A stretch of DNA of 42,378 bases. Origin: Escherichia phage LF82-23. Location of the stretch: the sequence record PV660458, one strand, 5' to 3'. The notes beneath the pieces were generated by a model. The model was not told the DNA's origin. It saw nothing but the letters and a program-made list of their open reading frames with translations, and did not search any database. Within the stretch, counting starts at the first letter, position 1; the number at the start of each line of letters is the position of its first letter. The position numbers were made by a program, and so were the translations under genes. Positions 1-39,984 of this stretch are shown piece after piece.

Positions 1-306
1 ATGGCATCCGTGAACAAGCAGCTCGATGGGCTGCACCGGATGCTGGTGGAGTATCTGTCCGACCGCTTGGCCGACGCTCGTAGGAAAGATGAACATGGTA
101 ATATCATCGAACCTATGGCGGCGGCTGAGCTGTCCGTACTTCGCCAGTTCCTGAAAGATAACGGTATTCAGGCTGATAAAGACCACGCCGACGATTTACT
201 CGCGCTGCAAGAGCAGCTTAACAACGAGAAAACGGAAGCAGGTCGTAAAGATATCATGTCTGCTGCCATCAACTCAATCGCAGAAGATAGCGGGATGATG
301 CACTAA
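1..306 (+). CDS. probable terminase small subunit (DNA maturase A-like)
   Basis: 101-aa ORF starting at window base 1; stop overlaps the start of the large terminase ORF (TAATG at 304-308); AAGGAG at 42367-42372 at the window end would be its RBS if the sequence is circular. Assignment by position and size only. Confidence 0.5.
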   Translation: MASVNKQLDGLHRMLVEYLSDRLADARRKDEHGNIIEPMAAAELSVLRQFLKDNGIQADKDHADDLLALQEQLNNEKTEAGRKDIMSAAINSIAEDSGMMH

Positions 307-2066
307 TGGATTTACAACGCCGCATGGTGATGGCAGGAATCGTTCGCGCCCACTACGAGAACAACTTCCCGCTGTTCCTGCATGACTACTTCGCATGGCT
401 GGGCTTTGACCTCACTGAAATGCAGCTCGACATTGGCCGCTACATGGCCGACCGGACGCTCAAGAACAAGTGCGTCATGGCTCAGCGCGGTGAGGCAAAG
501 TCCACCATCGGTATTGCTCGCGCCCTGTACGAGTTCGTTCAGATGCCGAACGCCACTGTGTTGTTGGTATCTGGTTCGGACGACTATGCGGGTACGCTGT
601 CGCACGCCATCGTGTCTGCCATTATGCAATGGGAGCGTCTGGAATGGCTGCGCCCTGAGACTCGCGCTGGCGCACGTACGTCCTATACGGACGGCTTCGA
701 CGTGCATCACGCATTCCGTATCCCTGACAAACAGCCCTCTGTAAAAGCGGTCGGTATCTTCGGCCAGTTGCAGGGGAACCACGTATCGCTGTTGATTGCC
801 GATGACGTGGAGACTACCAGTAACGGTAGCTCTCCTGCCAACCGCGCCCGTATCAACACCCTGACCAAAGAGTTTGCGGCTATCGCCAACGATGGTGCAG
901 AGATTCTGTACCTCGGCACACCGCAGACGCAGGACTCCATCTACAACACGCTCCCGCAGCGTGGCTTCGACGTTCGCATCTGGCCCGGTCGTTTCCCAAC
1001 GGTTGAGGAAGAAGAACGCTACGGCGGCTGTCTGGCCCCGTGGATTAAGCAGAAGATGGAGGGCCACCCGGAACTTCGCACAGGCTACGGTATCCTTGGG
1101 AACCGTGGTGCGCAGACCGACCCGCAACGCTACTCCGAAGAAAAGCAGTTGCAGAACGAGCGAGACTACCAGCAGGCAGGCTTCCAGTTGCAGTTCATGC
1201 TGGATACGTCGCTGTCGGATGCGCTCAAACAAACGTTACATCTCAAAGACTTAATCTTCTTCCACGGCTCAACGCAGTCTGCGCCGGAGGTTCTGCATTG
1301 GTCGAACCACCCGCGCCATGCCGCCGAGCTGCCACTGGATTTCCCACTGGCTCGCGCTCAGCTATTCTTGGCTGCTGATTTCTCGGACACTTATGTACCA
1401 TTCGAAAATACCTCGGCGTTTCTTGACCCTGCTGGTGGTGGGTCGGACGAATCAGTTATCATCGCCACCGCTTCTGTCGGCCCGTTTATCCACGTCATTG
1501 GTATGCACGTCTACCACGGCGGCCAGACGGAGGAAAACATCAAGGCGGCGGTAGAGTGGCTCGCTGAAACCGGGGTCAAACGGCTGGTCATTGAGGATAA
1601 CATGGGCCACGGCACCGTGACCAACATGTACCGAGGTGAGATTAAGCGCCAGAGCTTGACCATTGGCTGTGAGGGCGTGTACTCGTCTGGCCAGAAAGAG
1701 GTGCGTATCATCAACCGCCTTGGCCCAATCATGCAGCGCCACCGTGTCGTCGTGCATTGGTGCGTTGTTGAAGAAGACCTGCGGCTGTGTCGCGGGATGA
1801 ACAACGGTGGTCGAGAGTTCAGCCTGTTCTGGCAGCTCCAGAACCTGACACAAGACCGTCAATCCATCCCACACGATGACCGTATCGAAACCCTATCTGC
1901 TGCCGTGTACCTGCACGCTGAGGTGCTACAGCAGGACGAACATGAAGAAGCTGCCAAGCGCGAGACGGCTGCCGCACGAGAGTTCCTTGCCAACCCAATG
2001 GGTTACGATGACTCGAAGTGGCGTAGCCATAAGCCTGTGCGTGGCGTGCGACGGAGACTACGTTAA
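306..2066 (+). CDS. terminase large subunit (DNA maturase B)
   Basis: 586-aa ORF, translationally coupled to the upstream small ORF; size and position typical of T7-group large terminase; N-terminal region resembles T7 gp19-family proteins as I recall them (not searched). Confidence 0.8.
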   Translation: MDLQRRMVMAGIVRAHYENNFPLFLHDYFAWLGFDLTEMQLDIGRYMADRTLKNKCVMAQRGEAKSTIGIARALYEFVQMPNATVLLVSGSDDYAGTLSHAIVSAIMQWERLEWLRPETRAGARTSYTDGFDVHHAFRIPDKQPSVKAVGIFGQLQGNHVSLLIADDVETTSNGSSPANRARINTLTKEFAAIANDGAEILYLGTPQTQDSIYNTLPQRGFDVRIWPGRFPTVEEEERYGGCLAPWIKQKMEGHPELRTGYGILGNRGAQTDPQRYSEEKQLQNERDYQQAGFQLQFMLDTSLSDALKQTLHLKDLIFFHGSTQSAPEVLHWSNHPRHAAELPLDFPLARAQLFLAADFSDTYVPFENTSAFLDPAGGGSDESVIIATASVGPFIHVIGMHVYHGGQTEENIKAAVEWLAETGVKRLVIEDNMGHGTVTNMYRGEIKRQSLTIGCEGVYSSGQKEVRIINRLGPIMQRHRVVVHWCVVEEDLRLCRGMNNGGREFSLFWQLQNLTQDRQSIPHDDRIETLSAAVYLHAEVLQQDEHEEAAKRETAAAREFLANPMGYDDSKWRSHKPVRGVRRRLR

Positions 2067-2734
2067 TGTCCTTGATTACCATTACTGACCAACAGCGGTA
2101 CGATATCGGCTACCGCGCCAACATCGCTGCGAACCTTACGCAGCGTTTCGTGAACAACACTACTCAGATTACGGCAGCTCAGGCTGCTGACATTGATACG
2201 GCCATACAGCAGCTCATGACGGCGCTGGAAGCCGCAGGCTATAGTTCCGTACCAGAAGGCTCTGTTATCGTCGCAGGCGGCGATACAGCGACCGTGGTGA
2301 ACCAAGACGGCACTGTGTCCAAGACTGGTACGGTTGAGGTGGACGGTGACACTTATCAGATTCGATTCCCGGTCACTACGGGTATGAAGTCCAACGGTGA
2401 TTCCATCTCTGTGCAGAACGTGAACGGTGCTGCTGGCATCACCTCTACTGCATTCGTCAACACCAATGGCGTGCTGCTGGCAGCCCGGCTCCCCTCGACG
2501 GTAGCCTGCATCTCCAGCGGTAACGGTATCCAGATTCGCAACTCTGCGGGTACGGCTATCGCTAACGCCACTTTCACGGTTTCCAACGGTGTTATTGCGT
2601 ATGGCACCTTCCCGGCAACCATCGCTGCGGTAGCCAACGCCGCTGCCCTGCAAATCCCGGTAACTGGCACCTACGTGGATACTGTTACCTTCACTGTCGC
2701 TGGTGGCGTAATCACTGGCATCACACTCTCTTAA
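2066..2734 (+). CDS. hypothetical Gly/Thr/Val/Ala-rich beta-type protein, possibly virion- or tail-associated
   Basis: 222-aa ORF coupled to terminase stop (TAATG); low-complexity T/G/V/A/N-rich composition reminiscent of fibre/beta-sheet proteins; no catalytic motif recognised. Confidence 0.45.
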   Translation: MSLITITDQQRYDIGYRANIAANLTQRFVNNTTQITAAQAADIDTAIQQLMTALEAAGYSSVPEGSVIVAGGDTATVVNQDGTVSKTGTVEVDGDTYQIRFPVTTGMKSNGDSISVQNVNGAAGITSTAFVNTNGVLLAARLPSTVACISSGNGIQIRNSAGTAIANATFTVSNGVIAYGTFPATIAAVANAAALQIPVTGTYVDTVTFTVAGGVITGITLS

Positions 2735-2745
2735 GGAGAATCTTT

Positions 2746-2940
2746 ATGGCACTTGTTGATTCTACCGCTGCTGAACGTGCGGAGTTCGTGGCAGCCTGTA
2801 ATATGGCGGCCAAGTATCTGAACGTTTGGACGGAAGACTACTTCTTCGATACCACCAACACTGAGCTGGTTGCGTATTATCAGACCTTTGTGACCCGTGT
2901 ACAAACGGCGCTCACTAACCTGACGAACGCCGCAGCGTAA
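2746..2940 (+). CDS. hypothetical protein (64 aa)
   Basis: ORF with GGAG 7 nt upstream of ATG; no transmembrane segment; function unknown. Confidence 0.45.
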   Translation: MALVDSTAAERAEFVAACNMAAKYLNVWTEDYFFDTTNTELVAYYQTFVTRVQTALTNLTNAAA

Positions 2941-2950
2941 GGGGTATCTC

Positions 2951-3439
2951 ATGAAACTGTCTCGGCTAATGGCCGGGGCAGTCCTATCAGCGTCGCTGAC
3001 TCTGACGGGCTGCTCCGCAACTAGCGCACTGTCTGCTGTAACTTCGGCTGTATCTCCCAACAAGCCGGAACTGACGGCTCAGGTAGGTGCAGAAAACACG
3101 AAGCAAGGTATCGGTGTGACTGCGAAACAGTCCGATGAAACCGAAGTCGGTGATGTATCAGGCAACGCGAAAGTGGATACCGCTAAGCAGGGTTCGAATG
3201 GCACTTCCGTCAAGGACGTCTCAGGAGGCTCTGTAAACGCTTCTAAGCAGGGGTCACAAATGACCCAAGGAAACGTACAGGCTAAAACAGTTGTCATCTC
3301 TCAGAGCGACCCACGCAGTCTCCTGTGGGCATTTGGCATGGGCCTTACGTGCATCCTTGGTCTGGTCATGTGGTTTGTACCATCTCCGTGGAAAAGGAAA
3401 GTGAAAGATGACGGAAGCAAAGAAGGAGCCAACTCCTAA
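2951..3439 (+). CDS. lipoprotein with C-terminal transmembrane helix; unimolecular spanin (u-spanin) candidate
   Basis: N-terminal signal peptide ending in lipobox LTGC (Cys21), low-complexity periplasmic middle, C-terminal hydrophobic helix LLWAFGMGLTCILGLVMWFV; lies directly upstream of holin candidate and endolysin. Architecture matches the T1 gp11-type u-spanin. Confidence 0.55.
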   Translation: MKLSRLMAGAVLSASLTLTGCSATSALSAVTSAVSPNKPELTAQVGAENTKQGIGVTAKQSDETEVGDVSGNAKVDTAKQGSNGTSVKDVSGGSVNASKQGSQMTQGNVQAKTVVISQSDPRSLLWAFGMGLTCILGLVMWFVPSPWKRKVKDDGSKEGANS

Positions 3440-3791
3440 CATCCACTCGCGTATGGGTGCAGTGGAGGCTCGTATGCAATCCGTAGAACTTCGACTCGAC
3501 AAGCACGAGGTACAAATCGCGACCCTCGAAAAGGGTGATGCTGCAATGCTGGCCAAGTTAGCGGAGAACGATACCCGCTGGCAGACGGTTCAACAGCAGC
3601 TCCTTGTGGTTGAGCAAATTCAGGACATTCAGAAGACTATGAGCCACATCGGTAAGTTGTTCACGGCGGCGGCTCACGCTGTCAAATGGTGTCTCTTAAC
3701 TGCATCCCTGTGTAGCGGTATCTACTTAGCAATCAAGGCTGGTGACTTAAGCTCACTGCAAGCCTTCATCACTACACTACTGGGGATGTAA
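3408..3791 (+). CDS. membrane protein, holin candidate
   Basis: 127-aa ORF; predicted coiled-coil N-terminal region then hydrophobic C-terminal segment (AAAHAVKWCLLTASLCSGIYLAI); stop overlaps endolysin start (TAATG). Endolysin lacks a signal/SAR sequence, so a holin is expected here. Confidence 0.4.
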   Translation: MTEAKKEPTPNIHSRMGAVEARMQSVELRLDKHEVQIATLEKGDAAMLAKLAENDTRWQTVQQQLLVVEQIQDIQKTMSHIGKLFTAAAHAVKWCLLTASLCSGIYLAIKAGDLSSLQAFITTLLGM

Positions 3792-4327
3792 TGACTAACT
3801 TTGAAATCTGTATGCGGTTCACCGGGCTGGCAGAAGGTGGTTACACCAAGCTGCCCGGCGATACCGGAGGGGAAACGAATCATGGAATTAGCGACGCTCG
3901 TGATGGCAAACTGGATGGCCGAGCTTGTGGTGTCCCTACTGGGCTTGGCGGCACTATTTGTGTACCTATCAAGCAGCTCACCAAAGCACAAGCCGAAGCA
4001 ATCTATCGACGGGATTACTACACCCCCATCCGAGGTGACGAACTTCACCCTGCGATTGCATGTGCCGTGTTTGACTACGGTGTCAACTCCGGTGTCTCCC
4101 GTGCGGCGAAAGCTCTACAGCGGGTATGCGGCGTTGCACAAGACGGGATTGTTGGCCCTGCTACCGTGGCAGCAGCCAAACGTCTGGAACCTCACTCCGC
4201 AGCAGCAGCCATCTGTGACCTTCGTATTGCGTTCCTAAAGGCTTCTACAGCCCCGACAGTGGTTCGCTATAGGGATGCCTTGGTTGCTCGTGCAAAACGC
4301 TGTAGCGCTTACTGTGCGACGCTGTAG
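3791..4327 (+). CDS. endolysin, glycoside hydrolase family 108-like N-terminal domain plus C-terminal peptidoglycan-binding-like domain
   Basis: N-terminal motif FTGLAEGGYTKLPGDTGGETNHGI matches the GH108 EGGY...D.GG.T..GI signature; C-terminal region resembles PG_binding_3-type domains; last gene before the non-coding terminus. Confidence 0.8.
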   Translation: MTNFEICMRFTGLAEGGYTKLPGDTGGETNHGISDARDGKLDGRACGVPTGLGGTICVPIKQLTKAQAEAIYRRDYYTPIRGDELHPAIACAVFDYGVNSGVSRAAKALQRVCGVAQDGIVGPATVAAAKRLEPHSAAAAICDLRIAFLKASTAPTVVRYRDALVARAKRCSAYCATL

Positions 4328-4544
4328 GGGTATCCGAAAGCTGATGCAATGAACAGGCCGTGGGTGCAATACCCCGGCTTGAAAATTGACTATTTGTACG
4401 TGCCCCTCCCTCGACCCAAATGACCGCGCGTGCCCCCATAGCGTGTGCGCGGTTTAGCCTCGCGACGTGCGCGATAATTGCTCGCGTGCGCTGCGCGGCG
4501 CGTCGAAAGGATTGCCTGCGTGCGGTATAGCTCGTGCGTGTCGC

Positions 4545-4900
4545 GTTTCATCGTCTGCCGTGTGGCGTGCTGTGCGCTGTCCTGCTGGCTGTGCTGTGCG
4601 GTGCTGTCCTATGGGGACGCTCTGCGCTGGCTGGCTGGTGCTGTGGTAGCGGTGCGGTCGGTCGGGTATCTGTCTCTTTTCGTGGCGCGGCGTGGTGCTG
4701 TGTGGTGGCGGTGGTGCTGCGTGGTGCTGTCCTGTCTGCTGGTCTACTGTCTGCGCCTGCCAGCTCTGCGCGTCGTGCTCTGCTACCTGCTGTTACTGTC
4801 CTACTGCCTTCACTGTCTGCCGTCTGTCAGTCCTACGGTCTGCCATCCGTCATCCGTTCGGCGCTCGCTTGTTTCGGCTGCGCCGCGCTCGCTCTGCGTA
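4545..4900. other. A-depleted, GT- then CT-rich low-complexity non-coding block
   Basis: Roughly 5% A on the + strand by eye over about 350 nt (e.g. 4681-4740 contains no A); degenerate short repeats (GCTGTG, GGTGCTG, CTGTC); ORFs here exist only because stop codons need A. Confidence 0.7.
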
Positions 4901-5060
4901 TCTAGCGATACTATATCACTATAGACACTTTCATAATTATCTATTGATATCAGTAACTTATAACCTATCTGATAACGGTATTCTGACCAGTGTTATGATT
5001 ATCTAATCAAACTTTAATCCTAATGATTACAGTAACTTATCACTTTTCTTGAAAATAATA
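4901..5060. repeat. AT-rich block with clustered short GATA/TATC-type palindromes (candidate terminus/ori/packaging region)
   Basis: TTGATATCA, TATCTGATA, TGATTATCTAATCA, CAGTAACTTAT x2 seen directly; lies between the A-depleted block and the early promoters. Confidence 0.5.
4919..4934 (-). promoter_or_regulatory. inverted copy of conserved 16-mer ATGAAAGTGTCTATAG (candidate phage RNAP promoter element)
   Basis: Reverse complement of 4919-4934 is identical to 25618-25633; extended match about 27 nt with one mismatch. Confidence 0.35.
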
Positions 5061-5061
5061 C

Positions 5062-5091
5062 TTGCAAACTGTTTTGGTTTTGTGCTGTAAT
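5062..5091 (+). promoter_or_regulatory. sigma70-type early promoter P1
   Basis: TTGCAA (5062-5067), 18-nt spacer, TGTAAT (5086-5091) preceded by TGn extended -10. Confidence 0.6.
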
Positions 5092-5165
5092 TCATCACGT
5101 CGAAAGGCACTAGCCCAGTAGACAAGATTGAACGGTAACACTGCTCTTTAACAATCTGGAGTGTA

Positions 5166-5194
5166 TTGACAAGGCAAGCTCACTATGCTGTAAT
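5166..5194 (+). promoter_or_regulatory. sigma70-type early promoter P2
   Basis: TTGACA (5166-5171), 17-nt spacer, TGTAAT (5189-5194) with TGc extended -10. Confidence 0.7.
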
Positions 5195-5302
5195 GCTTCC
5201 ACGTCAGCCAGCAAGCTAAACAGTCATTGATAAAGACGTTAAAACACACGCAGGCAAACTGGTACGGGTTATTCATCTCAGAACGGGCGCTGAATAAAAC
5301 GG

Positions 5303-5331
5303 TTGACAGGATGAAACGAGTATGCTGTAAT
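5303..5331 (+). promoter_or_regulatory. sigma70-type early promoter P3
   Basis: TTGACA (5303-5308), 17-nt spacer, TGTAAT (5326-5331) with TGc extended -10. Confidence 0.7.
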
Positions 5332-5382
5332 ACGCTCCAGATTGACAGGGCAGCAAGCCAGTCAGTCAGAAGTAAAAAGTAG

Positions 5383-5411
5383 TTGACACGCTGAATACGA
5401 TGTGATGTAAT
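5383..5411 (+). promoter_or_regulatory. sigma70-type early promoter P4
   Basis: TTGACA (5383-5388), 17-nt spacer, TGTAAT (5406-5411) with TGa extended -10. Confidence 0.7.
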
Positions 5412-6993: not shown

Positions 6994-7007
6994 GCGGGAT
7001 TGACTCA

Positions 7008-7045
7008 AGCCAGTGTCACGGCGCTGGCTTTATGGCAATTCTGCC
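7008..7045 (+). promoter_or_regulatory. conserved early intergenic unit 1: hairpin (AGCCAG/CTGGCT) + GGCA-N4-TGCC element
   Basis: Stem 7008-7013/7024-7029; GGCAATTCTGCC 7034-7045; 34 nt from GGCA to ATG of next gene. Confidence 0.5.
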
Positions 7046-7067: not shown

Positions 7068-7349
7068 ATGTCTATCAAAACTGTAACTGCTTTCATCACC
7101 AAACGCGACGGCGAACTGTACGGCTTCGCTGTGTCTCTGAACGAAGGCCAGTACCTGCACCATGTCCGTGAAGACGGCGAGCCGACTGAGGCTGCTGGTA
7201 TTCTGGAAACGCTGGCTGGTATCCCGCTGCCGCATGAGTTCATCATCATGCTGGCTGAGCAGGACGAAGACGAGCTGAAAGCGCGTCACGGTAGCGGCCT
7301 GACGCTGGAAGAAATCGGCACCTTCGAAGCCGAGGTTGACGACGAGTAA
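7068..7349 (+). CDS. small acidic early protein (93 aa)
   Basis: AGGAG 9 nt upstream; ORF-track start 7032 lies inside the conserved upstream element, so the downstream ATG was chosen; acidic C-terminus (EAEVDDE). Confidence 0.6.
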   Translation: MSIKTVTAFITKRDGELYGFAVSLNEGQYLHHVREDGEPTEAAGILETLAGIPLPHEFIIMLAEQDEDELKARHGSGLTLEEIGTFEAEVDDE

Positions 7350-7360
7350 GCGTTGTCCTG

Positions 7361-7398
7361 CTGCGCCTTCAACGAGGGCGCAGCGTGGCAATAATGCC
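7361..7398 (+). promoter_or_regulatory. conserved early intergenic unit 2: hairpin (CTGCGCC/GGCGCAG) + GGCA-N4-TGCC element
   Basis: Stem 7361-7367/7377-7383; GGCAATAATGCC 7387-7398; 34 nt to ATG. Confidence 0.5.
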
Positions 7399-7762: not shown

Positions 7763-7769
7763 TACCTTA

Positions 7770-7806
7770 CTGCCTCGTTGCGACGGGGCAGTGCGGCAAT
7801 CATGCC
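7770..7806 (+). promoter_or_regulatory. conserved early intergenic unit 3: hairpin (CTGCC/GGCAG) + GGCA-N4-TGCC element
   Basis: Stem 7770-7774/7787-7791; GGCAATCATGCC 7795-7806; 33 nt to ATG. Confidence 0.5.
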
Positions 7807-8379: not shown

Positions 8380-8418
8380 CTGCCCTTGCATAGTCGAGGG
8401 CAGTAGGGCAATCATGCC
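8380..8418 (+). promoter_or_regulatory. conserved early intergenic unit 4: hairpin (CTGCCC/GGGCAG) + GGCA-N4-TGCC element
   Basis: Stem 8380-8385/8398-8403; GGCAATCATGCC 8407-8418; 34 nt to ATG. Confidence 0.5.
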
Positions 8419-11185: not shown

Positions 11186-11326
11186 AAACTCCAGCCGAAT
11201 AAACCTTTGGCTGTGCGTGATACTAAGTGGGAGGCCGAGAGTAAACTCGAAGACCTGCAACGCATAGTGCGTAATGTTATTCCGGCGTAGTCATCTACTC
11301 ATGCCTGTTATTATTTAGCAGGCATT

Positions 11327-11342
11327 ATGAAGGTGTCTATAT
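11327..11342 (+). promoter_or_regulatory. conserved motif ATGAAGGTGTCTATAT (candidate phage RNAP promoter), preceded by hairpin 11301-11325
   Basis: 15/16 identity with the 16-mer at 25618; 21 nt upstream of the first middle gene start. Confidence 0.35.
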
Positions 11343-11363
11343 TGGCCAACGTGAGGATGAAAT

Positions 11364-11567
11364 ATGTTCAGAGTTATATTGTTGTTCCTGTTCCTCGTAT
11401 TAATATGGGGTGCTATCTGGTGCGTGCTGGCAATGACTGTGCTGGTGCCTGCCATCGGTGAATCAGCAACGGGTGGGCTGGGTACAATACTCGGTATGCT
11501 GGTGGGCTGGGGCTTAATGTCGTTCAGCCTTGACGTAGGCCAGAGCCGGAGGTGGATTAAATGGTAA
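11364..11567 (+). CDS. small membrane protein (67 aa, two hydrophobic helices)
   Basis: GAGGATGA upstream of ATG; sequence dominated by two hydrophobic stretches. Confidence 0.55.
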   Translation: MFRVILLFLFLVLIWGAIWCVLAMTVLVPAIGESATGGLGTILGMLVGWGLMSFSLDVGQSRRWIKW

Positions 11568-20127: not shown

Positions 20128-20434
20128 CGAACCGATGGTAGACCTCAAGCTCATGGTTGTTGACCACGACCATGTGAGTGGGGAGATTCGCGGTGTCATC
20201 TGCCGCTGGTGTAATGCTCAGCTCGGCAAGGTAGAGAACTCTGCCAACCGAGCGAAGCGCCAGCGCACAGTTGACGACTGGCTGGACAGCGCCATCGAGT
20301 GGCGACGTAAGCAACACACTGGTCTGATGTACCCAACGCACAAGACCGAGGCAGAGAAGAAAGCGGCGACAGCCGAGAGACGTAAGAAGGCGGCAGCCGC
20401 GAAAGCGCGAGCCTTAATCACTAAGGGGAAATGA
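20102..20434 (+). CDS. endonuclease VII-family (Holliday-junction resolvase-like) protein
   Basis: Motif CPCPLC...VVDHDHVSGEIRGVICRWCNAQLG; start chosen at ATG 20102 (GGAAG upstream); the ORF extends upstream to 20042, overlapping the exonuclease. Confidence 0.65.
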   Translation: MGCPCPLCNEPMVDLKLMVVDHDHVSGEIRGVICRWCNAQLGKVENSANRAKRQRTVDDWLDSAIEWRRKQHTGLMYPTHKTEAEKKAATAERRKKAAAAKARALITKGK

Positions 20435-22272: not shown

Positions 22273-22843
22273 GAAAGGTCAGAAGTTTATCTTAGACCCG
22301 ACACGCAACTGGGGCACTGGTACGCTGCTGAGCGACATTGCTGAGCAAGGTATCATCCTGACGTATGACGAGCCGTACGATGTGCCGAACGACAGCCGTG
22401 ACTACTACACCTGCGTCAAGGATGGCACGACCCACCTGCTGGTGTTGGAACCCTACGAAGTGAAGGAGGTTGAAATGTCCTTTATCCCGAACGACCCGTA
22501 TGACCCTTCCAGTGATGTTGAGGTGGCCGTGGTCAAGAGCGCCGGGCCGGGCGGTATGAAGTTCGACGGCGGCAAGCCCCGCATGTCTCTGCTGTTCGAC
22601 GGCTGCCCAAATGCACTGGAGGCTGTGGCCAGCGTGCTGACCTTCGGCGCTGAGAAGTATGCAGCTCACTCGTGGCAGACTGTACCGGAAGGTGAGGAAC
22701 GCTACAAGTCAGCATTGCTCCGGCACCTGACGGCGGTGGGCAAGGGTGAGGAACTGGATAGCGAATCCAACCTGCATCATCTGGCGCACGCCGCGTGCAA
22801 TGCGCTGTTCATTCTGGAACTCGAATTAAGGAAACGTAAATGA
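22265..22843 (+). CDS. hypothetical protein, possible all-alpha NTP pyrophosphohydrolase (MazG-like / dATP-dGTP diphosphohydrolase-like) domain
   Basis: C-terminal KFDGGKPRMSLL...FGAEKYAAHSW...LLRHL...GEELDSESNLHHLAHAACNALFILE resembles that family as I recall it; GGAGG 8 nt upstream of ATG 22265. Confidence 0.35.
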   Translation: MGKKGQKFILDPTRNWGTGTLLSDIAEQGIILTYDEPYDVPNDSRDYYTCVKDGTTHLLVLEPYEVKEVEMSFIPNDPYDPSSDVEVAVVKSAGPGGMKFDGGKPRMSLLFDGCPNALEAVASVLTFGAEKYAAHSWQTVPEGEERYKSALLRHLTAVGKGEELDSESNLHHLAHAACNALFILELELRKRK

Positions 22844-23154
22844 GTCGTTATCAAAGAGCCGTTGACGACACGGTGGTTGACCATAAGGTGTGCGGTGCCT
22901 GCCACGGCAGCGGCACCTACCGTGGCATGTTGATTGGTGGGCAGGTAGTCCTGATGGATTGCGAAGCCTGCGGCGGTACGGGTACTAATGACCCGGCACT
23001 GCAACATTCTGTACTGAGTGACTTAGGCCAGCGCGTACAAGCGCAGCCGGGATATGACGAGCCAAGCAAGCCATCGTATGGTGTGGGTATCGTCGAGCAA
23101 TACGCCGAAGACGGCAAGCTGATTGAGCACCTGAGCAAACAAGTTAAGGAGTAG
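22840..23154 (+). CDS. zinc-ribbon protein with DnaJ-like CxxCxGxG repeats (104 aa)
   Basis: CGACHGSG and CEACGGTG motifs; ATGA overlap with upstream gene. Confidence 0.5.
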   Translation: MSRYQRAVDDTVVDHKVCGACHGSGTYRGMLIGGQVVLMDCEACGGTGTNDPALQHSVLSDLGQRVQAQPGYDEPSKPSYGVGIVEQYAEDGKLIEHLSKQVKE

Positions 23155-25589: not shown

Positions 25590-25593
25590 TAAA

Positions 25594-25645
25594 TAGTGAT
25601 ATGTATCATTGACTTAAATGAAAGTGTCTATAGTGATATGTATCA
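25594..25645 (+). promoter_or_regulatory. repeat cluster downstream of RNAP gene: TAGTGATATGTATCA x2 flanking conserved 16-mer ATGAAAGTGTCTATAG (candidate phage promoter / origin)
   Basis: Direct repeats at 25594-25608 and 25631-25645; 16-mer at 25618-25633; location corresponds to the promoter/origin region after gene 1 in T7. Confidence 0.4.
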
Positions 25646-25699
25646 CGCTACCGGTAGCCCCGTCAGTGGCGGGGGTTACTGCCACTCAGAGAGGATTGT

Positions 25700-25885
25700 A
25701 TGGGTAGAGAATCTCCACTTGAAAGAGTTCAGTTCACTAAAGCTCAGTTAGCTCTACTGGAAAAGCACTTCGGTACATGGTCTCAGGTAGGTAAGACTGT
25801 CACCCCCGACACTAACCTACCTCTGATTAACAGAGAAGCTGGTAAGCAAGACGTTCTGGATTTCATCAGAGAAAGAGTGATTTGA
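25700..25885 (+). CDS. hypothetical protein (61 aa)
   Basis: GAGAGGA 6 nt upstream of ATG. Confidence 0.5.
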   Translation: MGRESPLERVQFTKAQLALLEKHFGTWSQVGKTVTPDTNLPLINREAGKQDVLDFIRERVI

Positions 25886-25886
25886 A

Positions 25887-26306
25887 ATGAAAGTGTCTAC
25901 TATGGGAAATACATCACACACGACGATGCCACTCGACATTCGCCGTGCTGTGGCCGAAGGCATTCAAGCTGAGCGGCCATGGTCAGACCTATCTCCCGAT
26001 GTGATTGTTGACAGCATGTACGAGGCCACCGCCTCCGGTTGTGTTGACGTTTACATCACTGACGATGACGGCAGCCTCATGGCTGTTGCTCACATCGGCA
26101 GGTTATTCGATATTCATGTGGGTGAGATGGTGGTCGTTATGGCCTCATACGTCTGGCCCCAGTACAGAAACCGTGGAGTGATGCGTGCCATCCTCCGTGT
26201 ACTCAAAGACGTGGCCCGTTCTGCGGGTGTACGTTGGTGCGGTTACTCCCATATGGTGCGGCCTTACGTTCAGGAGTACCGCTTCATTGATTTGGAGAAA
26301 CCGTAA
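25887..26306 (+). CDS. hypothetical protein (139 aa); weak acyltransferase-like resemblance
   Basis: Start overlaps third copy of the conserved motif (ATGAAAGTGTCTACTA); segment YRNRGVMRAILRVL only loosely GNAT-like; start uncertain. Confidence 0.4.
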   Translation: MKVSTMGNTSHTTMPLDIRRAVAEGIQAERPWSDLSPDVIVDSMYEATASGCVDVYITDDDGSLMAVAHIGRLFDIHVGEMVVVMASYVWPQYRNRGVMRAILRVLKDVARSAGVRWCGYSHMVRPYVQEYRFIDLEKP

Positions 26307-34183: not shown

Positions 34184-36880
34184 ATGGCTACTATGCGTGA
34201 CCAGCGTGGCGCTAACCTTAATGCTGCGCAGCAGGGATTACCAAATGTGCAGCAGGCGCAGACTCCGTTTAGTCTCGCAGGCCGCGATACTCGCATCGAC
34301 ACGTTTCCTACCGAGTCCATTCAGCGCGTACTGAACATGGCCAGCGCACTTGCTGGCCGTGTCACTGAGCGTGCGAACGAGGAAGAATACCTCAAGGGTG
34401 CCAATGCCGCCGCGAGCGGTAAGGCTGTTGAGGATTTGGATTCGAACTGGCTGACTGCCCAGTTCCAGAAGGCTGGTTACAACGACCAGTACAAGCGTAT
34501 GCAGATGGCGAACGTCGCCTCTGAAATCTCGGCTAACATGCCGCAGTACGCGAAAATGAGTCCTGACGAGTTCTTGAAGGTGGTGGACGAGAAGACCACT
34601 GGCCTGTTCGAGAACACTGATGGTATGACGCTGAACGGTCGTAAGTCTCTGCTGGAGAACCAGCTCACGTTCAGCAACACCCTTATCCGTACGCAGGCTG
34701 CCCAGCATGGTAAGTATCTGGTTGAGCAGCGTGCAGCTATGTACAATGCGCAGGGTAACACTCTTGTTACTCTGGCGGCTCAGGCCAAGGCGACTGGTGA
34801 CGGCGGCGCGTACGCTAACGCTACGGCTGCGACCATGGCGTGGGCCAAGTCCATTCTGGCAGACGATAAGCTGCCGCTGGAAACTCGACGGACTCAGGTA
34901 ACGTCCATGATGGGGCTGATGCTCCAGCAGGATTTGCGTACCCCTGTCGAGACTGCTGTTAACTCCGGGCTGTTCAACGAGCTGCCTGCCGAGGACTTGG
35001 CCAAGCTGCAAGGTCAGATTCGTGAATCCAAATCTCGTACCGAGGTTCAGGACAACATGGGTCTGCTGGCGCAGAAGGGTCAGCTCGATGCGCGTCAGGC
35101 AGTGTTCGGTGACGTTACGCCGGAGCAGTACACGCAGACGCTCCAGCAGATGGTGGACAACAAGCTGATTAGTGCTGGTGGTTTCAGCTCTGCTATCGAG
35201 TCCTTCTACAAGGATTATGCGAAGCAGGCCAAGGCCAGCCAGCTCGGTCAGGCGTACGCTACCGGGAACCAGACGTACATGCTCCAGCAGGGTGCGAGTG
35301 AACAGGATGGTGCTGACGCATTCATCAAGGCTCGCATGAAGCAGCCGGGCGCGACGGCAAGCTCCGTGGCATTCGACCTGCTGCAAGTTGGCGCACAGAC
35401 TGGCTTCCCTTCTGCGTATAAGTCTGCTGCCAAACTGATTGAACCATCCCTGTCGAACTTCGGCACCGTGGATGAAATGAACCCTGATGCAGCCGCTACC
35501 GTGACCGGGCTGATTGACCGCGTGGCCGTGGCCGAGAATCAGGGTGATAAGACCGCGTGGACTAAACTCCTGTCCGGTCTGTCCGAGGAAAACCAAGAGA
35601 AGATGGTGTACATGCGCGAGCAGATTAAGGCCGGGCGCACCATCGACCAAGCTGGTCAGGGTTACATCAAGCAGCAGCAGGACTACGCTGGCTTAACCCC
35701 GGCACAGAAATCTCAAATCCTCACGCAGCGTCAATCTGACGTTAACACTGTGGTGAACTCCCTTGAGGCTCAGGGCTTCTTTTCTCGCACTTGGCAGGGG
35801 CTGGCTGGTCTGTTCTCAGACACTCAGCAGAACCTGTTCCAAGCTCGCGTCGCATCTGGTGACATTACTGCCGCGCAGGAAATGTCGGAGGTGTCTGCCG
35901 CGTACCGCGAGGAACTGCAAGCTGTCGTCCTCAAGAACCCGAACGTGACCAAAGATGGTATGGAAGCCCTCGCATCTGCGAAGCTGGCTAACCGTGTCCT
36001 CCGCGTCGGGGAAACCACATTCAGTCCCGGCTCTGTGCTTATCGCACCGAGAGGCCAAACTGTTCAGTCTATGCTCGGCTTGCCTGCTGACGTAGCCCCC
36101 GACCGTATCGGTCGCGCTATCGCCGCACTTGACCAGACCAAGGCACCAGAAGGCTTCGAGTCGTCCTACTCGTTTATGCCAGATGGCTCTCTGAACGTTC
36201 AGTTCTTCAACAAGCAAGGTGACGTTTCCCCGAACTCGGTACGCATTCTGCCGCAGGTCGTGCAGGAACGCATCCGTGAAGACGACCGTGCAGCGGCCAC
36301 TGCCAATAACGAAGTCTATGGCGACGGGAAACTCTTTGTTGATAAGTCCAGTAACATCGGGATTCGCGTGAATGGCGTGAATACTGCTGGGGTAGACGAG
36401 CAGCGTATGCTTGTTGCCCGTGGCAAACTGATTGACTTCGAAGGTATCCGCAATACCACTTACCGCGACAGCACTGGTGTGCAGACGAACGGTATTGGTA
36501 TTTCTGACCGCAGCCCGTACTTCTCGGAAGGTCAGGCATCCGGTATGAAAGGCGGTACTGAATGGTCTCCGCGAACTATCCATGATACGTTCGTGCAGCA
36601 CACCAACATGGTGGCCCGGCAGATGCCCGGCACTGCTGCTGCACTGGGGTGGAGTCGTGACAACGATGCCCAGTTCCAGTTCATGATGCAGATGGGTTAT
36701 CAGGCAGGTTCAAGCTGGTATCGCACCGATGGCGCGTACAGCAAGCTGGCTGATGCAATCCGTGTTGGCGACCAAGAGAAAGCTGTTCAGGCTCTGGCTG
36801 CGACTCCGGCTTACAAGCTGTCGCAGGACGAGCGTAAGCAGTATTACGTCCAAACTCTACTCGCAGGTATGCAGGAATGA
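34184..36880 (+). CDS. internal virion protein B (gp15-like)
   Basis: 898-aa ORF at the gp15 position. Confidence 0.6.
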   Translation: MATMRDQRGANLNAAQQGLPNVQQAQTPFSLAGRDTRIDTFPTESIQRVLNMASALAGRVTERANEEEYLKGANAAASGKAVEDLDSNWLTAQFQKAGYNDQYKRMQMANVASEISANMPQYAKMSPDEFLKVVDEKTTGLFENTDGMTLNGRKSLLENQLTFSNTLIRTQAAQHGKYLVEQRAAMYNAQGNTLVTLAAQAKATGDGGAYANATAATMAWAKSILADDKLPLETRRTQVTSMMGLMLQQDLRTPVETAVNSGLFNELPAEDLAKLQGQIRESKSRTEVQDNMGLLAQKGQLDARQAVFGDVTPEQYTQTLQQMVDNKLISAGGFSSAIESFYKDYAKQAKASQLGQAYATGNQTYMLQQGASEQDGADAFIKARMKQPGATASSVAFDLLQVGAQTGFPSAYKSAAKLIEPSLSNFGTVDEMNPDAAATVTGLIDRVAVAENQGDKTAWTKLLSGLSEENQEKMVYMREQIKAGRTIDQAGQGYIKQQQDYAGLTPAQKSQILTQRQSDVNTVVNSLEAQGFFSRTWQGLAGLFSDTQQNLFQARVASGDITAAQEMSEVSAAYREELQAVVLKNPNVTKDGMEALASAKLANRVLRVGETTFSPGSVLIAPRGQTVQSMLGLPADVAPDRIGRAIAALDQTKAPEGFESSYSFMPDGSLNVQFFNKQGDVSPNSVRILPQVVQERIREDDRAAATANNEVYGDGKLFVDKSSNIGIRVNGVNTAGVDEQRMLVARGKLIDFEGIRNTTYRDSTGVQTNGIGISDRSPYFSEGQASGMKGGTEWSPRTIHDTFVQHTNMVARQMPGTAAALGWSRDNDAQFQFMMQMGYQAGSSWYRTDGAYSKLADAIRVGDQEKAVQALAATPAYKLSQDERKQYYVQTLLAGMQE

Positions 36881-39800
36881 TTATCACACAAGAATCGCTC
36901 GACAAGTTCATGGCTCCCAAGCAGGGGGCCAATGCCCCTACGCTGGTGATTCCAGCTCCCGTAAAGACTGCTGACCTCAGCACTCCGCTGCAAGATGCCA
37001 CTCGTCAGGGTGCCGTCGAGCAGTTCGACAAGATGCAGGAACTGGAAGCGACTCCGATGGCCACGGCGTTGAGCGCTTCTGTGAAGAACTGGGATACCAC
37101 CCAGCTCTTTGATGCGGCAATCAACAAGCCTGTGTTTCAGGCTGACCCAAACTTCCACCCTAACGAGGCGTTGCAGAACGTCCAGTTCCCGGTGGGGGAG
37201 GATGACCGTAAGTTCCTGTTCAAATCCAAATCCATGGACGAGTTCAACTGGCGCACCCAGCAGCTCCAAGAGATGCGCGAGCGTACCCAGTTGGCTCACA
37301 CTGCCCCGGTGATGAACGCGGTTCTGCAATTTGCTGACCCGCTGTACCTCGCCACTGACCTGCTCTCGATGGGAGCAGGCACTGCCCTGAAATTAGGTCG
37401 CCTCGGAACCGCCGCTGTCGGTGCAGCTTCAACTGCTGCCACTATGACAGCGGTGGGTAATGAAGCACGCCCAGTGTCTCAGAACGAAATCATCTTCGCG
37501 GCTGCCCTGCACGGGGCGGCCACCACTGCATTCTATCGCCCGGCCCCGGTACAGCGCTCGCTGGCCGACCTGTCGCCGGAGGAATTTGCAGCGGAGATGC
37601 AGCGTCGTAATGGCATCGACCCGAACAACCCGCCGCAGTTCGACCCGAACAACGCCATGTCACCTATGGCAATGTCCTTGGGCTTCGGCGGTCGTGGTGC
37701 AACCGTGGTTGATGAAGTGCCTGAGTCCATCCGTGCCGCCGCACAACGTGGCCTCGACCTTGCTCGCCGTGGTGAGCAGACCAACCCTAAGCGTCCGTTC
37801 CTTGAATGGTCTCTGTTCAAGTCATTCAGCCAGCATTCCGACGAAGCCAGTGCTCTGGCCGGGCGACTGCTGGATGACCCGCTGAACCCGAACATGACCT
37901 CTGCTGCCGCAATCCAGCGCGAGACTCAGGCTCGCTTCGGCGTGCTGCTGAACCAGTACGAGGACACCCTGCGTAATGCGCTGAGCACTGATGGCTGGAC
38001 TAACATCCGGCGCTTCCGTGACCCGGTTGGTTATCGCCGGGCGCAGCAGGAGTTCGAAGCTGCTGTCCGTCTCGAACTGGACAAGCGCATGATTGACAAA
38101 GAGTTCAGAGGTGCCAACGAGAAGGTGGCCGCCGCCGCTGACCGACTGGGGGAATACTCCCGCGCCGTTGGCCGCGAGCTGGAAACGAAGGGCATGGTTG
38201 AGCCGGGCTTCGTAGACAAGAACCCGTACTACTACCCGCGCCGGATGAACGTGACCAAGATTGAGCAGGCTGAGCAGTTGCTCGGTAAGAAGCCATTCAT
38301 GAAGCAGATGACGACTGCGGTGCAGCGCGGTATCGGTACTGACCGTCCGACTGCCAACGTCATCGCCCATGCCATGGTTGAGCGTGCTCGCCGCAAGGGT
38401 TATGGTGTTGACAACTCCGGTATGATTATCAACAAGGAGGGCCGCGATGAACTGCTCGAAATCATTGAGAACTCGAAAGGTCTCGACGAGGCTGCCAAGG
38501 CCCGTGCTTCCGCACTCCTTCGTGAGTCTGGCTCGGACGCTGGCCGACCGTCGATGCTCAAGAGCCGTATCAACATCGACATGATGCACACGCTTGGCCC
38601 GAACTTGCAGGTGCGTGACCTGTTCGACGACAGCATCACCAGCATGATGGACAGCTACAACCGCCGCATTACTGGGCGACTGGCTCTGCATGAGGCTGGA
38701 CTGGGTACTGACGCTGAACGTGTCGCCGCTCGCGAGGCTCTGGCCAAATCCATCAAGGATGGTACGGCTCGTCGCCAAGCGCTGGCGCAGTACGATAACA
38801 TCATGGCCTACTATCAGGGTGCCCCGGTCGGTGAGGAAATGCCGCAGTTCATGCGCCAGCTCTCTGCGCTGACTCAGGCTACTGGTCTGGCTGCATCTGG
38901 CCTGTGGCAGTTGGTGGAATACGGCACGATGATGCAACGTTTCGGGGCAGTCAATACGTTTCGCGCCATGATGCGTACAATTCCCGAAGCACGCGCACTA
39001 TTTAAGCAAATGAGGGTGTCTACTAAGGAAGGTCGTCAATTGGCTCTGGATGCCGAGGAAGCGCTGACTGCGGCTGTGGCGAGTGATATTCGTATGCGCC
39101 CAATCATGCAGCACTACGACGACATGTTCTCTGCCGACAAGTCTCCGTGGGTTATGCGTCTTGAACACGCCCGTGATGCCACGATGTTCATCAACATGCA
39201 GAAATACATTCACTTCCACCAGACTCGAACCAACGCTGCTCTCGTGATGCAGACGCTGCGTAAGGCAGCCGAAGGTGATGCCAAGGCTATTGCAGCCATG
39301 AAAACCTACGGTGCCAATGACGCGCTGCTGTCTGATATTCGCAAGCAGGTTGGTACTCATGGCACCAAGCCAGATGCTTGGGATGAAGGGGTATTCAATC
39401 GCTCTCGCATTGTCATGATGAATGCCATGGATGACGCTATTGTTCGCGCTCGCGTAGGTGAGCTGCCTGCATTTGCTGAGTTCAGTACGCTGGGTAAGTT
39501 CCTGTTTACGTTCCGTCGATTCGTCGCGGCGACGCACAACAAGACTCTGGTTGGTACGTGGAACCGTGAGGGTGCCCGTGGCATGGCTACGCTCATGGCG
39601 TACCAGTACCCGCTGGCAATGATGGCCACTGCTGCTAACAACGTGATTTCCGGTAAGGCATTCTCCGACCCGGACACTATGGCTCCGAACAAACTGGCTG
39701 GTCAGGCACTGAACTACCTTGGTGCTATTGGCTTTGCCTCTGAGTTCACTGGAGTTCTGACCGGGCAGCAGCGCAGCTTCGGTGCGCCGGGCCTGCTGTT

Positions 39801-39984
39801 CCTTGACCGCGCTTACGGTGTGGCGGGTGCAGCTACCAGTGCTGCTGGTGGCGTGCTGACTGGCGATACTGAGCAGGCAGTGTCTGGCGCTCGCAAAGCG
39901 GCAGGCAACATCATCCAAGCTATCCCACTCATTTCAATCGTGCCGGGAGTCCGAGCACTCAACGAAGCAGTTAAGGGTGAATAA
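36877..39984 (+). CDS. internal virion protein C (gp16-like)
   Basis: 1035-aa ORF at the gp16 position; ATGA overlap with the preceding gene. Confidence 0.6.
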   Translation: MIITQESLDKFMAPKQGANAPTLVIPAPVKTADLSTPLQDATRQGAVEQFDKMQELEATPMATALSASVKNWDTTQLFDAAINKPVFQADPNFHPNEALQNVQFPVGEDDRKFLFKSKSMDEFNWRTQQLQEMRERTQLAHTAPVMNAVLQFADPLYLATDLLSMGAGTALKLGRLGTAAVGAASTAATMTAVGNEARPVSQNEIIFAAALHGAATTAFYRPAPVQRSLADLSPEEFAAEMQRRNGIDPNNPPQFDPNNAMSPMAMSLGFGGRGATVVDEVPESIRAAAQRGLDLARRGEQTNPKRPFLEWSLFKSFSQHSDEASALAGRLLDDPLNPNMTSAAAIQRETQARFGVLLNQYEDTLRNALSTDGWTNIRRFRDPVGYRRAQQEFEAAVRLELDKRMIDKEFRGANEKVAAAADRLGEYSRAVGRELETKGMVEPGFVDKNPYYYPRRMNVTKIEQAEQLLGKKPFMKQMTTAVQRGIGTDRPTANVIAHAMVERARRKGYGVDNSGMIINKEGRDELLEIIENSKGLDEAAKARASALLRESGSDAGRPSMLKSRINIDMMHTLGPNLQVRDLFDDSITSMMDSYNRRITGRLALHEAGLGTDAERVAAREALAKSIKDGTARRQALAQYDNIMAYYQGAPVGEEMPQFMRQLSALTQATGLAASGLWQLVEYGTMMQRFGAVNTFRAMMRTIPEARALFKQMRVSTKEGRQLALDAEEALTAAVASDIRMRPIMQHYDDMFSADKSPWVMRLEHARDATMFINMQKYIHFHQTRTNAALVMQTLRKAAEGDAKAIAAMKTYGANDALLSDIRKQVGTHGTKPDAWDEGVFNRSRIVMMNAMDDAIVRARVGELPAFAEFSTLGKFLFTFRRFVAATHNKTLVGTWNREGARGMATLMAYQYPLAMMATAANNVISGKAFSDPDTMAPNKLAGQALNYLGAIGFASEFTGVLTGQQRSFGAPGLLFLDRAYGVAGAATSAAGGVLTGDTEQAVSGARKAAGNIIQAIPLISIVPGVRALNEAVKGE

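Follow-up and report, generated by a model that had tools for sequence, protein, structure and literature searches.

Genome organization and the RNA polymerase gene

The window, that is, the whole 42,378-nt stretch of DNA that was analysed (Escherichia phage LF82-23, record PV660458), comprises a complete, circularly permuted genome of the genus Bonnellvirus, a phiKMV-like coliphage (podovirus) of the Autographiviridae. Its closest relative is Escherichia phage megetsur, with 96.6% identity across the RNA polymerase (RNAP) region. Every gene lies on the + strand, and the gene blocks follow one another in the order listed in Table 1. The left genome end was placed at ~4411, with a terminal repeat until ~4655, by homology to phage J8-65, in which the terminal repeats are annotated at 1-259. 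Four strong host promoters of the form TTGACA-17-TGTAAT are clustered at ~5053-5411. An Rfam scan of the whole LF82-23 genome matched no RNA family.

The last of the DNA-metabolism genes encodes a single-subunit, T7-type RNAP. In a phmmer search against T7 RNAP structures, its 810-residue product was matched over residues 6-781 (E = 1e-57), and the corresponding genes of relatives are annotated as RNA polymerase.

Table 1. Gene blocks, putative promoters and neighbouring elements of the LF82-23 window.
Feature	Position	Strand	Remarks
Terminase and lysis genes	1-4327	+	
Non-coding stretch, ~1.2 kb	after 4327		holds the genome end and host promoters
Putative promoter E	4917-4934	-	leftward; proposed start 4917
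Early genes	up to ~11290	+	
Hairpin, 10 bp	11301-11325	+	abuts putative promoter A; candidate early-transcript terminator or processing site
Putative promoter A	11327-11344	+	positions -17 to +1; proposed start G 11344; exact motif
DNA-metabolism genes	after early genes	+	last gene encodes the RNAP
RNAP gene, single-subunit T7-type, 810 aa	23157-25589	+	matched to T7 RNAP structures by phmmer; annotated as RNA polymerase in relatives
RNAP residues 682-707	codons 25200-25277	+	aligned to the T7 specificity loop
Structural genes	after RNAP gene	+	
Direct repeat ATAGTGATATGTATCA, 16 nt	25593-25608, 25630-25645	+	flanks putative promoter B
Putative promoter B	25618-25635	+	proposed start G 25635; exact motif
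Putative promoter C	25887-25904	+	proposed start G 25904; exact motif
Putative promoter D, ATGAGGGTGTCTActaaG	39010-39027	+	inside 36877-39984; upstream of tailspike, terminase and lysis genes

Five copies of a short motif

A preliminary description of this DNA had proposed a conserved 16-mer as a candidate promoter of the phage RNAP, with near-identical copies at 11327, 25618 and 25887 on the + strand and an inverted copy at 4919-4934. All of these copies were recovered at those positions: the 16-mers read ATGAAGGTGTCTATAT (11327-11342), ATGAAAGTGTCTATAG (25618-25633) and ATGAAAGTGTCTACTA (25887-25902), and 4919-4934 is the exact reverse complement of 25618-25633. The unit that they share is shorter than had been thought, a core of only 13 nt, ATGAARGTGTCTA, which occurs exactly at 11327(+), 25618(+), 25887(+) and 4922-4934(-). 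The copies at 25618(+) and 4934(-) are identical across 22 nt (4913-4934 versus 25618-25639). The preliminary description had counted four copies and had called for a scan of both strands; that scan added a fifth, overlooked copy at 39010-39022(+), ATGAGGGTGTCTA, which has one mismatch and lies within the internal-virion-protein gene (36877-39984).

The both-strand scan returned four exact matches and eight at no more than two mismatches; 100 dinucleotide-preserving shuffles averaged 1.12 such matches, and all had fewer than eight. The two-mismatch matches at 2951, 18314 and 31706 show no co-variation in relatives and were set aside as chance or coding matches. AT-rich upstream flanks had also been remarked on, and the three most A+T-rich 40-nt windows of the genome do lie just upstream of 4934(-) and 25618.

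Hereafter, the copies are called sites A to E, as in Table 1. Site A stands at the head of the DNA-metabolism block that ends in the RNAP gene. Its 16-mer follows directly on a 10-bp hairpin, at the place of the early terminator of the preliminary description, and, as noted previously, ends 21 nt ahead of the gene at 11364; counted from the proposed start, this first middle gene is preceded by a 20-nt leader containing a GAGGA Shine-Dalgarno sequence. The earlier placement of the next two copies, one right after the RNAP gene and one at a gene start, agrees with the coordinates. Site B begins 28 nt past the RNAP stop codon, with a leader of ~65 nt to the gene at 25700. Site C lies 297 nt past the same stop codon and 269 nt from site B, and a 139-aa gene (25887-26306) is annotated as starting at its ATG. 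Transcripts from site C would be without this annotated start codon. The first host early promoter lies ~120 nt to the right of site E, which is ~270 nt to the inside of the terminal repeat and ~510 nt from the inferred left genome end; J8-65 carries the homologue of site E at 536-548(-).

Layout and orientation of the sites

Eleven related genomes were fetched whole, giving 58 sites in all. Column counts over these sites define an invariant ATGA..G element at -17 to -11, a variable triplet at -10 to -8, a CTR element at -7 to -5 and an AT-rich segment at -4 to -1. The proposed +1, 18 nt from the A of ATG, is G in 56 of the 58 sites, and positions -19/-18 hold A or T in ~88% of them. This numbering is inferred, and the proposed +1 could be off by 1-2 nt. 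Adopting the T7 register, CTATA followed by the starting G, would shift +1 by 2 nt upstream at sites B and E.

The orientation of the motif had been left open in the preliminary description, owing to the occurrence of CACTATAG on the strand opposite site E. Comparison of the five sites fixes the direction. The CACTATAG string arises opposite site E, and also opposite site B, because CTATAG is its own reverse complement and is followed there by TG; sites A, C and D do not have it, and neither do the E copies of LIMEzero and Lidtsur. Conservation is confined to the ATGAARG side of the motif, and reading the motif in the opposite orientation would no longer place the triplet upstream of the melting segment. 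Sites A to D thus point with the genes, and site E points leftward.

A hairpin at the 5' end of the transcripts from sites B and E (GUGAUAnnUAUCAC) was considered and rejected, with z = -1.25 and -0.64, respectively; it vanishes if the start is the invariant G. Relatives retain a small palindrome at this position, with differing loops.

Concerted variation among related phages

All five places are conserved in nine of the 11 relatives, site D being absent from J8-65 and smaasur; site A is found at the same place, with the type-specific triplet, in all 11. The central triplet switches together at all copies within a genome. It reads TGT in LF82-23, megetsur and aldrigsur; TGA in RZ4, glasur and ROV85; CTA in usur and Kc261; and TAA, with CTG replacing the adjoining CTA, in J8-65 and smaasur, while the core in LIMEzero is CAA-KCACTA. 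In Lidtsur, the five copies are not uniform at -9/-8 (TAT, TAA, TGA). Given this non-uniformity and the absence of site D from J8-65 and smaasur, the set is not rigid. Two IMG/VR contigs hold further core variants, in each case with two copies in tandem immediately downstream of the RNAP gene. Another observation from IMG/VR is that a contig with an identical RNAP fragment does not match LF82-23 exactly over longer stretches.

Within a promoter type, the 18-nt element showed no differences in 594 position comparisons, and the flanks differed in 212 of 1650. When types are compared with one another, the triplet differs at 62.7% of positions, which is as fully as possible, compared with 2.8% for the rest of the element and 25.5% for the flanks. 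In a motif-blind test, LF82-23, RZ4 and usur were aligned and columns reading TGT/TGA/CTA were sought on either strand over ~40 kb. Such columns occur at exactly the five sites, and this three-genome comparison yielded no further co-varying site.

Two of the sites lie in coding sequence, and the encoded residues vary with promoter type. At site C, the N-terminus of the 139-aa protein reads MKVST, MKVTI, MKATT or MKVTV, and MKAST in LIMEzero; at site D, the residues are QMRVST, QMRVTT, QMRATT or QMRAST. These changes show that selection acts on the DNA element. Being within coding sequence, sites C and D also owe part of their conservation to protein constraint.

Coupling to the RNA polymerase

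The concerted change of the triplet points to a common, phage-encoded reader, and phage usur bears on the identity of that reader. Over 400 nt to either side of its sites A and D, usur shares 95-99% identity with glasur but only 73-91% with Kc261. Its motifs are nevertheless of the Kc261 type, and its RNAP is 99.4% identical to that of Kc261 and 90.2% identical to that of glasur. In this mosaic of glasur-like flanks with a Kc261-type motif and RNAP, the triplet therefore cannot be explained by linkage or by shared ancestry of the local DNA.

Among the 810 columns of the RNAP alignment, six split the three closest promoter types three ways, and 687, 688 and 699 fall within the stretch of ~26 residues that aligns with the T7 specificity loop. 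Residues N691, N693, K701 and R703 of LF82-23 align with T7 R746, N748, R756 and Q758, respectively; these correspondences were taken from the PDB alignment, and a separate alignment to the T7 RNAP sequence agreed with them. Each promoter type has its own loop sequence. The TGT and TGA types differ by T versus A at -8 and by three loop residues (T687I, M688A and S699G), their RNAPs being ~91% identical, and in the CTA and TAA types the residues at the equivalents of T7 R746 and N748 differ as well. Overall, variation falls at the equivalents of P742, I743, R746, N748 and Q754, whereas those of R756 and Q758 are constant (K and R). In T7-like enzymes, the specificity loop is the main determinant of promoter specificity, and co-variation of promoter and loop is the rule in the T7 class (PMC11880802). 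Part of the loop correlation is phylogenetic, since promoter type and RNAP clade coincide for the most part. What these genomes show directly is that the copies exist and are conserved, that they change in concert, and that they are coupled to the RNAP gene and its loop.

Comparison with characterized promoters

Four phage-specific promoters, P001 and P007-P009, have been mapped by ONT-cappable-seq in LUZ19 (Phikmvvirus) (Putzeys et al. 2024, PMC10914365). Two of these follow the RNAP gene, one lies in the structural region and one is antisense at the left end; RNA from the latter enters right-end genes, and the authors suggest that it blocks read-through into the early genes (PMC10914365). 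LF82-23 resembles LUZ19 in the low copy number of a single ~20-bp motif (five copies here, four in LUZ19) and in their arrangement: sites B and C follow the RNAP gene at the same positions as P007 and P008, site D, in the internal-virion-protein gene, is analogous to P009, and site E is antisense at the left, as is P001. LF82-23 differs in having site A in addition, at the early/middle boundary. The preliminary description had likened the placement of the copies to that of phage-specific promoters in T7-group genomes and had asked for a comparison with promoters of phiKMV-like phages; with LUZ19, the positions match. At the level of sequence, the 20-bp Phikmvvirus consensus GgtTATGTCACacACAnnGG is not matched by ATGAARGTGTCTAnnnwG, only the ATG element being common to both, and the two RNAPs are ~32% identical. 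The LUZ19 sites were mapped experimentally, whereas those of LF82-23 come from sequence comparison. The LF82-23 motif therefore appears to be of the same kind but of another specificity, and not a member of the narrow Phikmvvirus promoter family.

A closer comparison is offered by Pantoea phage LIMEzero (NC_015585), the RNAP of which is 70% identical to that of LF82-23. Its record bears two "putative phage specific promoter" annotations, both predictions. The first (7294-7313), between a terminator and the primase gene, is the positional homologue of site A, and the second (20330-20349), immediately downstream of the RNAP gene, is that of site B. Five sites were found in LIMEzero against the two annotated, the homologues of C, D and E lying at 20741, 33867 and 655(-). 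The two phages have the frame AARGG-NNN-...-G in common, and the LIMEzero core, CAA-KCACTA, is closer to the CACTA of T7 and T3.

The promoter of T7 is TAATACGACTCACTATAG and that of SP6 is ATTTAGGTGACACTATAG. The LF82-23 sites share with T7, T3 and SP6 promoters an upstream recognition element of 17-18 bp that begins with an AT-rich element, a CTATA-like melting segment and a G at +1, as well as specificity positions at about -8 to -11, the part that the specificity loop recognizes in this class. A resemblance to the SP6 sequence AGGTGACACTATAG is seen in the TGA type (AAGGTGACTATAG). Differences from T7 include the RNAP, which is ~25% identical, and copy number: T7 has 17 copies (18 according to PhageProm) and SP6 has 12, whereas LF82-23 has five, one of them antisense.

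Two further systems share a short element with LF82-23. The RNAP promoter of Cronobacter phage Dev-CD-23823, AATGTATACCCCTATATACAC, has been validated in vitro (Takatsuki et al. 2025, PMC12272871), and the KP34 promoter, TAATGTTACAGGAGTA followed by GGG, is experimentally active (PMC6834552). Both start with AATG, and the Dev-CD-23823 frame AATG-N7-CTATA is also present at site B (AATGAAAGTGTCTATAG). However, the Dev-CD-23823 promoter has A as its start and an unrelated motif middle. The LF82-23 RNAP is ~28% identical to that of the Cronosvirus relative Kc318 and ~31% identical to those of KP34-like phages, and 25-32% identical to any polymerase with a characterized promoter. Because the polymerases are this distant, the AATG resemblance is a lead only and gives no evidence of shared specificity. 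Two unrelated classes of promoter are recognized by the KP34 RNAP, which leaves room for additional promoters in LF82-23. When a second repeated motif class of this kind was sought in LF82-23 with a repeat finder, only early-region intergenic hairpin modules and coding-sequence similarities were returned.

Assignment of the motif and alternative explanations

We propose that the motif is very probably the promoter of the phage's own T7-type, single-subunit RNAP, present in five copies. The preliminary description had suggested the same assignment, which is now supported by four independent lines of comparative evidence: the concerted triplet, the usur mosaic together with the specificity loop, the T7-type layout and the positions of the LIMEzero and LUZ19 promoters. 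LF82-23 has the attributes of this class of promoter: a cognate RNAP gene; several near-identical copies, mostly co-oriented (four of the five), that head gene blocks; the T7-type arrangement of elements; and specificity bases that co-vary with the RNAP loop. The sites would constitute a well-supported, ordinary addition to the known T7-type promoters.

Concerted change calls for a common reader encoded by the phage, though not specifically for the RNAP, and site E lies in an AT-rich region by the terminal repeat, where replication or packaging signals would be expected. The sites could thus bind another phage-encoded, sequence-specific protein of lineage-dependent specificity, for instance one that initiates replication, takes part in packaging or regulates transcription; no other co-varying DNA-binding gene came to light in the comparisons made here. 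We consider this improbable, as it is the RNAP gene that the triplet tracks in the mosaic phage usur, and the type-splitting residues are concentrated in the specificity-loop region of the RNAP; moreover, the placement at block heads, the T7-like layout with G at +1 and the precedents in LUZ19 and LIMEzero fit promoters. Less probable still is that the sites mark localized single-strand interruptions (nicks) of the kind present in virion DNA of phiKMV-like Pseudomonas phages. Nicks were offered as an alternative for a conserved low-copy motif in work on KP34-like phages (PMC4411677), and a few dispersed copies per genome would fit. However, four copies are on one strand and one on the other, the coupling to the RNAP loop would go unexplained, and no nickase is known here; the Phikmvvirus literature that we examined also keeps the nick idea and the mapped promoter motif separate (PMC4411677, PMC10914365).

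Recognition by the host polymerase, with TATAGT, TATATT or TACTAT as the -10 hexamer of a sigma-70 promoter, is very improbable. Site A does include a 9/12 match (TTAGCA-17-TATATT, 11315-11343), and a TTGACT hexamer is found upstream of site B, although only 14 nt from TATAGT. Such matches are no more frequent than expected from shuffles in any of the scanned regions, and there are none at sites B, C, D and E; the true host promoters form the TTGACA-17-TGTAAT cluster described above. In a sigma-70 promoter, the conserved, type-switching bases would fall in the spacer, which is not read sequence-specifically, and the host polymerase is the same for all coliphage types, leaving the concerted switching unexplained. 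Conservation at the level of protein or RNA, as a translation start, an N-terminal peptide (MKVS...) or a leader-peptide element, is brought to mind by the ATG that begins all + strand copies and by the real annotated start codon at 25887, but we regard it as scarcely credible. Only one of the five sites is at a gene start, and site D is mid-gene. The frame that begins at 11327 runs for 44 codons in LF82-23 but for only 10 in megetsur, and those from 25618 (29 codons) and 4934(-) (seven codons) are without a Shine-Dalgarno sequence. The changes between types are non-synonymous (Ser to Thr, Val to Ala), which indicates that the amino-acid changes result from those in the DNA element rather than the other way round.

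Proposed roles of the sites and significance

With the motif taken as the promoter of the phage RNAP, the start site, the contacts and the roles of the individual sites can be inferred. By analogy with T7 RNAP, the polymerase would bind duplex DNA over approximately -17 to -5 (ATGAARG-NNN-CTA), with the beta-hairpin specificity loop (residues ~682-707) entering the major groove to read the triplet located around -10 to -8. The AT-rich segment at -4 to -1 would then melt, and RNA synthesis would begin, to within ~2 nt, at the invariant G, which lies 18 nt from the A of ATG. Site A would drive the DNA-metabolism genes and with them the RNAP gene, a positive feedback that would set in after read-through by the host polymerase from the early promoters. 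Sites B and C would drive the structural genes, and site D would boost the tailspike, terminase and lysis genes. From site E, a non-coding leftward RNA would cross the terminal repeat and run off the left end; on concatemers, it would extend antisense into the lysis genes.

On balance, we favour the view that seven or more polymerase/promoter specificities form a natural series within this narrow clade, some of them being one promoter base (T versus A at -8) and three loop residues apart. The five promoters would have been re-tuned together on acquisition of another polymerase gene, with the two sites in coding sequence forcing amino-acid changes in two unrelated proteins. In the same view, the leftward promoter, found at the same position in LIMEzero and LUZ19, would have a necessary role, for example in blocking read-through at concatemer junctions or in end processing or packaging.

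The literature that we searched describes no promoter for Bonnellvirus and yielded neither a transcriptome nor biochemical work on the genus, and in this clade promoters had been guessed at only two sites of one relative, in the GenBank annotation of LIMEzero. More widely, 741 of the 1757 polymerase-bearing phage genomes in a genome-wide survey of 2025 received no definite promoter prediction. The motif supplies a concrete promoter candidate for the polymerases of this uncharacterized genus of the Autographiviridae, with which the transcription units of Bonnellvirus phages may be correctly annotated. The closely related types are candidate orthogonal polymerase/promoter pairs, and the few, readily interpreted substitutions between them may help to reveal how a specificity loop recognizes positions -10 to -8. 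The antisense left-end promoter seen in LUZ19 would be conserved across the wider phiKMV group. The specificity series, the coding-embedded promoters and the antisense left-end promoter are of modest interest and do not overturn current understanding.

Elements next to sites A and B

Site B is flanked by the two copies of the direct repeat ATAGTGATATGTATCA, which the preliminary description had compared with the setting of the primary origin of T7. The repeats themselves are real, but the likeness to the T7 origin is unsupported. The upstream copy is missing in usur, Kc261, glasur, smaasur and LIMEzero, and the downstream copy coincides with the initially transcribed GTGATAnnTATCAC palindrome, the hairpin of which is weak and not significant. 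As at a T7-like origin, tandem promoters (B and C) follow the RNAP gene, but a downstream AT-rich segment with conserved repeats was not found: the AT-rich windows precede B and C, and the A+T content of 25640-25679 is just 35%. It is the lack of conservation of the repeat, together with the upstream location of the AT-rich DNA, that leaves the origin analogy without support.

The hairpin that abuts site A folds at -22.6 kcal/mol (z = -4.3). It is retained in relatives through a compensatory change, CCTG/CAGG to CCAG/CTGG, and in J8-65 a different sequence adopts the same shape. The hairpin has no U-run, which makes it no more than a candidate terminator. The LIMEzero annotation places a terminator at the corresponding position.

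Variation in the proposed promoter and elements flanking the polymerase gene

In the relative Lidtsur, five copies of the proposed phage-polymerase promoter were located (Table, in that genome's own coordinates), and these are not alike at −9/−8, within the variable triplet of the motif, reading TAT, TAA, TGA, TAT and TAA in the order listed; two of the five also lack a G at the proposed +1. This copy-to-copy variation may mean that the Lidtsur polymerase is less strict in its choice of promoter or that its specificity is currently shifting.

Immediately upstream of promoter B, the copy at 25618 (+), lies a hexamer, TTGACT or TTGCTT (25609–25614 in the window, and homologues), separated from the promoter by 3–4 nt. 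Every relative within Bonnellvirus keeps this hexamer; LIMEzero lacks it. Pairing of this hexamer with TATAGT as a sigma-70 promoter was rejected because the spacing, at 14 nt, is too short. A small gene (22840–23154, +) lies just upstream of the RNA polymerase gene; the records of J8-65, Lidtsur and LIMEzero call it "anti-termination protein Q-like". Should that annotation hold, its product might help the host polymerase to reach the RNA polymerase gene before promoter A, the copy at 11327 (+), becomes usable.

Early-region promoters and intergenic hairpins

Four strong host-type early promoters share one core (Table), contained within TATGCTGTAAT in three of the four. They are not picked up by a consensus promoter scan because their −10 element carries G as its second base. 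The spacers between the early genes harbor a repeated two-hairpin module, comprising, in order, a GC-rich stem-loop of 10–12 bp and variable sequence, a small GGCA-AUnA-UGCC hairpin, approximately 20 nt, a Shine-Dalgarno sequence and ATG. Folding z-scores for two copies were −3.4 and −4.1, and we regard these modules as candidate RNA processing or stability elements.

Table. Coordinates of promoter copies and hairpin modules
Feature	Position	Strand	Core
Host-type early promoter 1	~5053–5090	+	TTGACA-17-TGTAAT
Host-type early promoter 2	~5166–5194	+	TTGACA-17-TGTAAT
Host-type early promoter 3	~5303–5331	+	TTGACA-17-TGTAAT
Host-type early promoter 4	~5383–5411	+	TTGACA-17-TGTAAT
Two-hairpin module	7007–7044, 7359–7398, 7768–7806, 8380–8418	+	
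Two-hairpin module, weaker copy	~10287		
Lidtsur promoter copies	5999, 19775, 20015, 33128, 41432(−)		

Terminal-repeat region

The conserved element TATCTGTCTCTTTTCGTGGCG (4667–4688, +) lies just inside the right end inferred for the terminal repeat; its J8-65 counterpart, at ~270–290, is CTATCTATCTTTTTTCGTGGCG. In sequence, the element may resemble the T7 class II pause signal at the concatemer junction, ATCTGTT followed by a T-run. The plus strand across 4411–4900 shows strong G+T skew, and degenerate GTGCTGT-type repeats are present; the minus strand is correspondingly C/A-rich with few stop codons, and the "hypothetical proteins" that the ROV85 and glasur annotations place on that strand of the region are therefore probably spurious. 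Between the leftward promoter E, the copy at 4934 (−), and the first host promoter, the stretch 4935–5052 is 80% A+T and contains a 30-nt direct repeat (4941–4970 and 5020–5049; copies 80% identical), possibly representing a replication or entry-related element.
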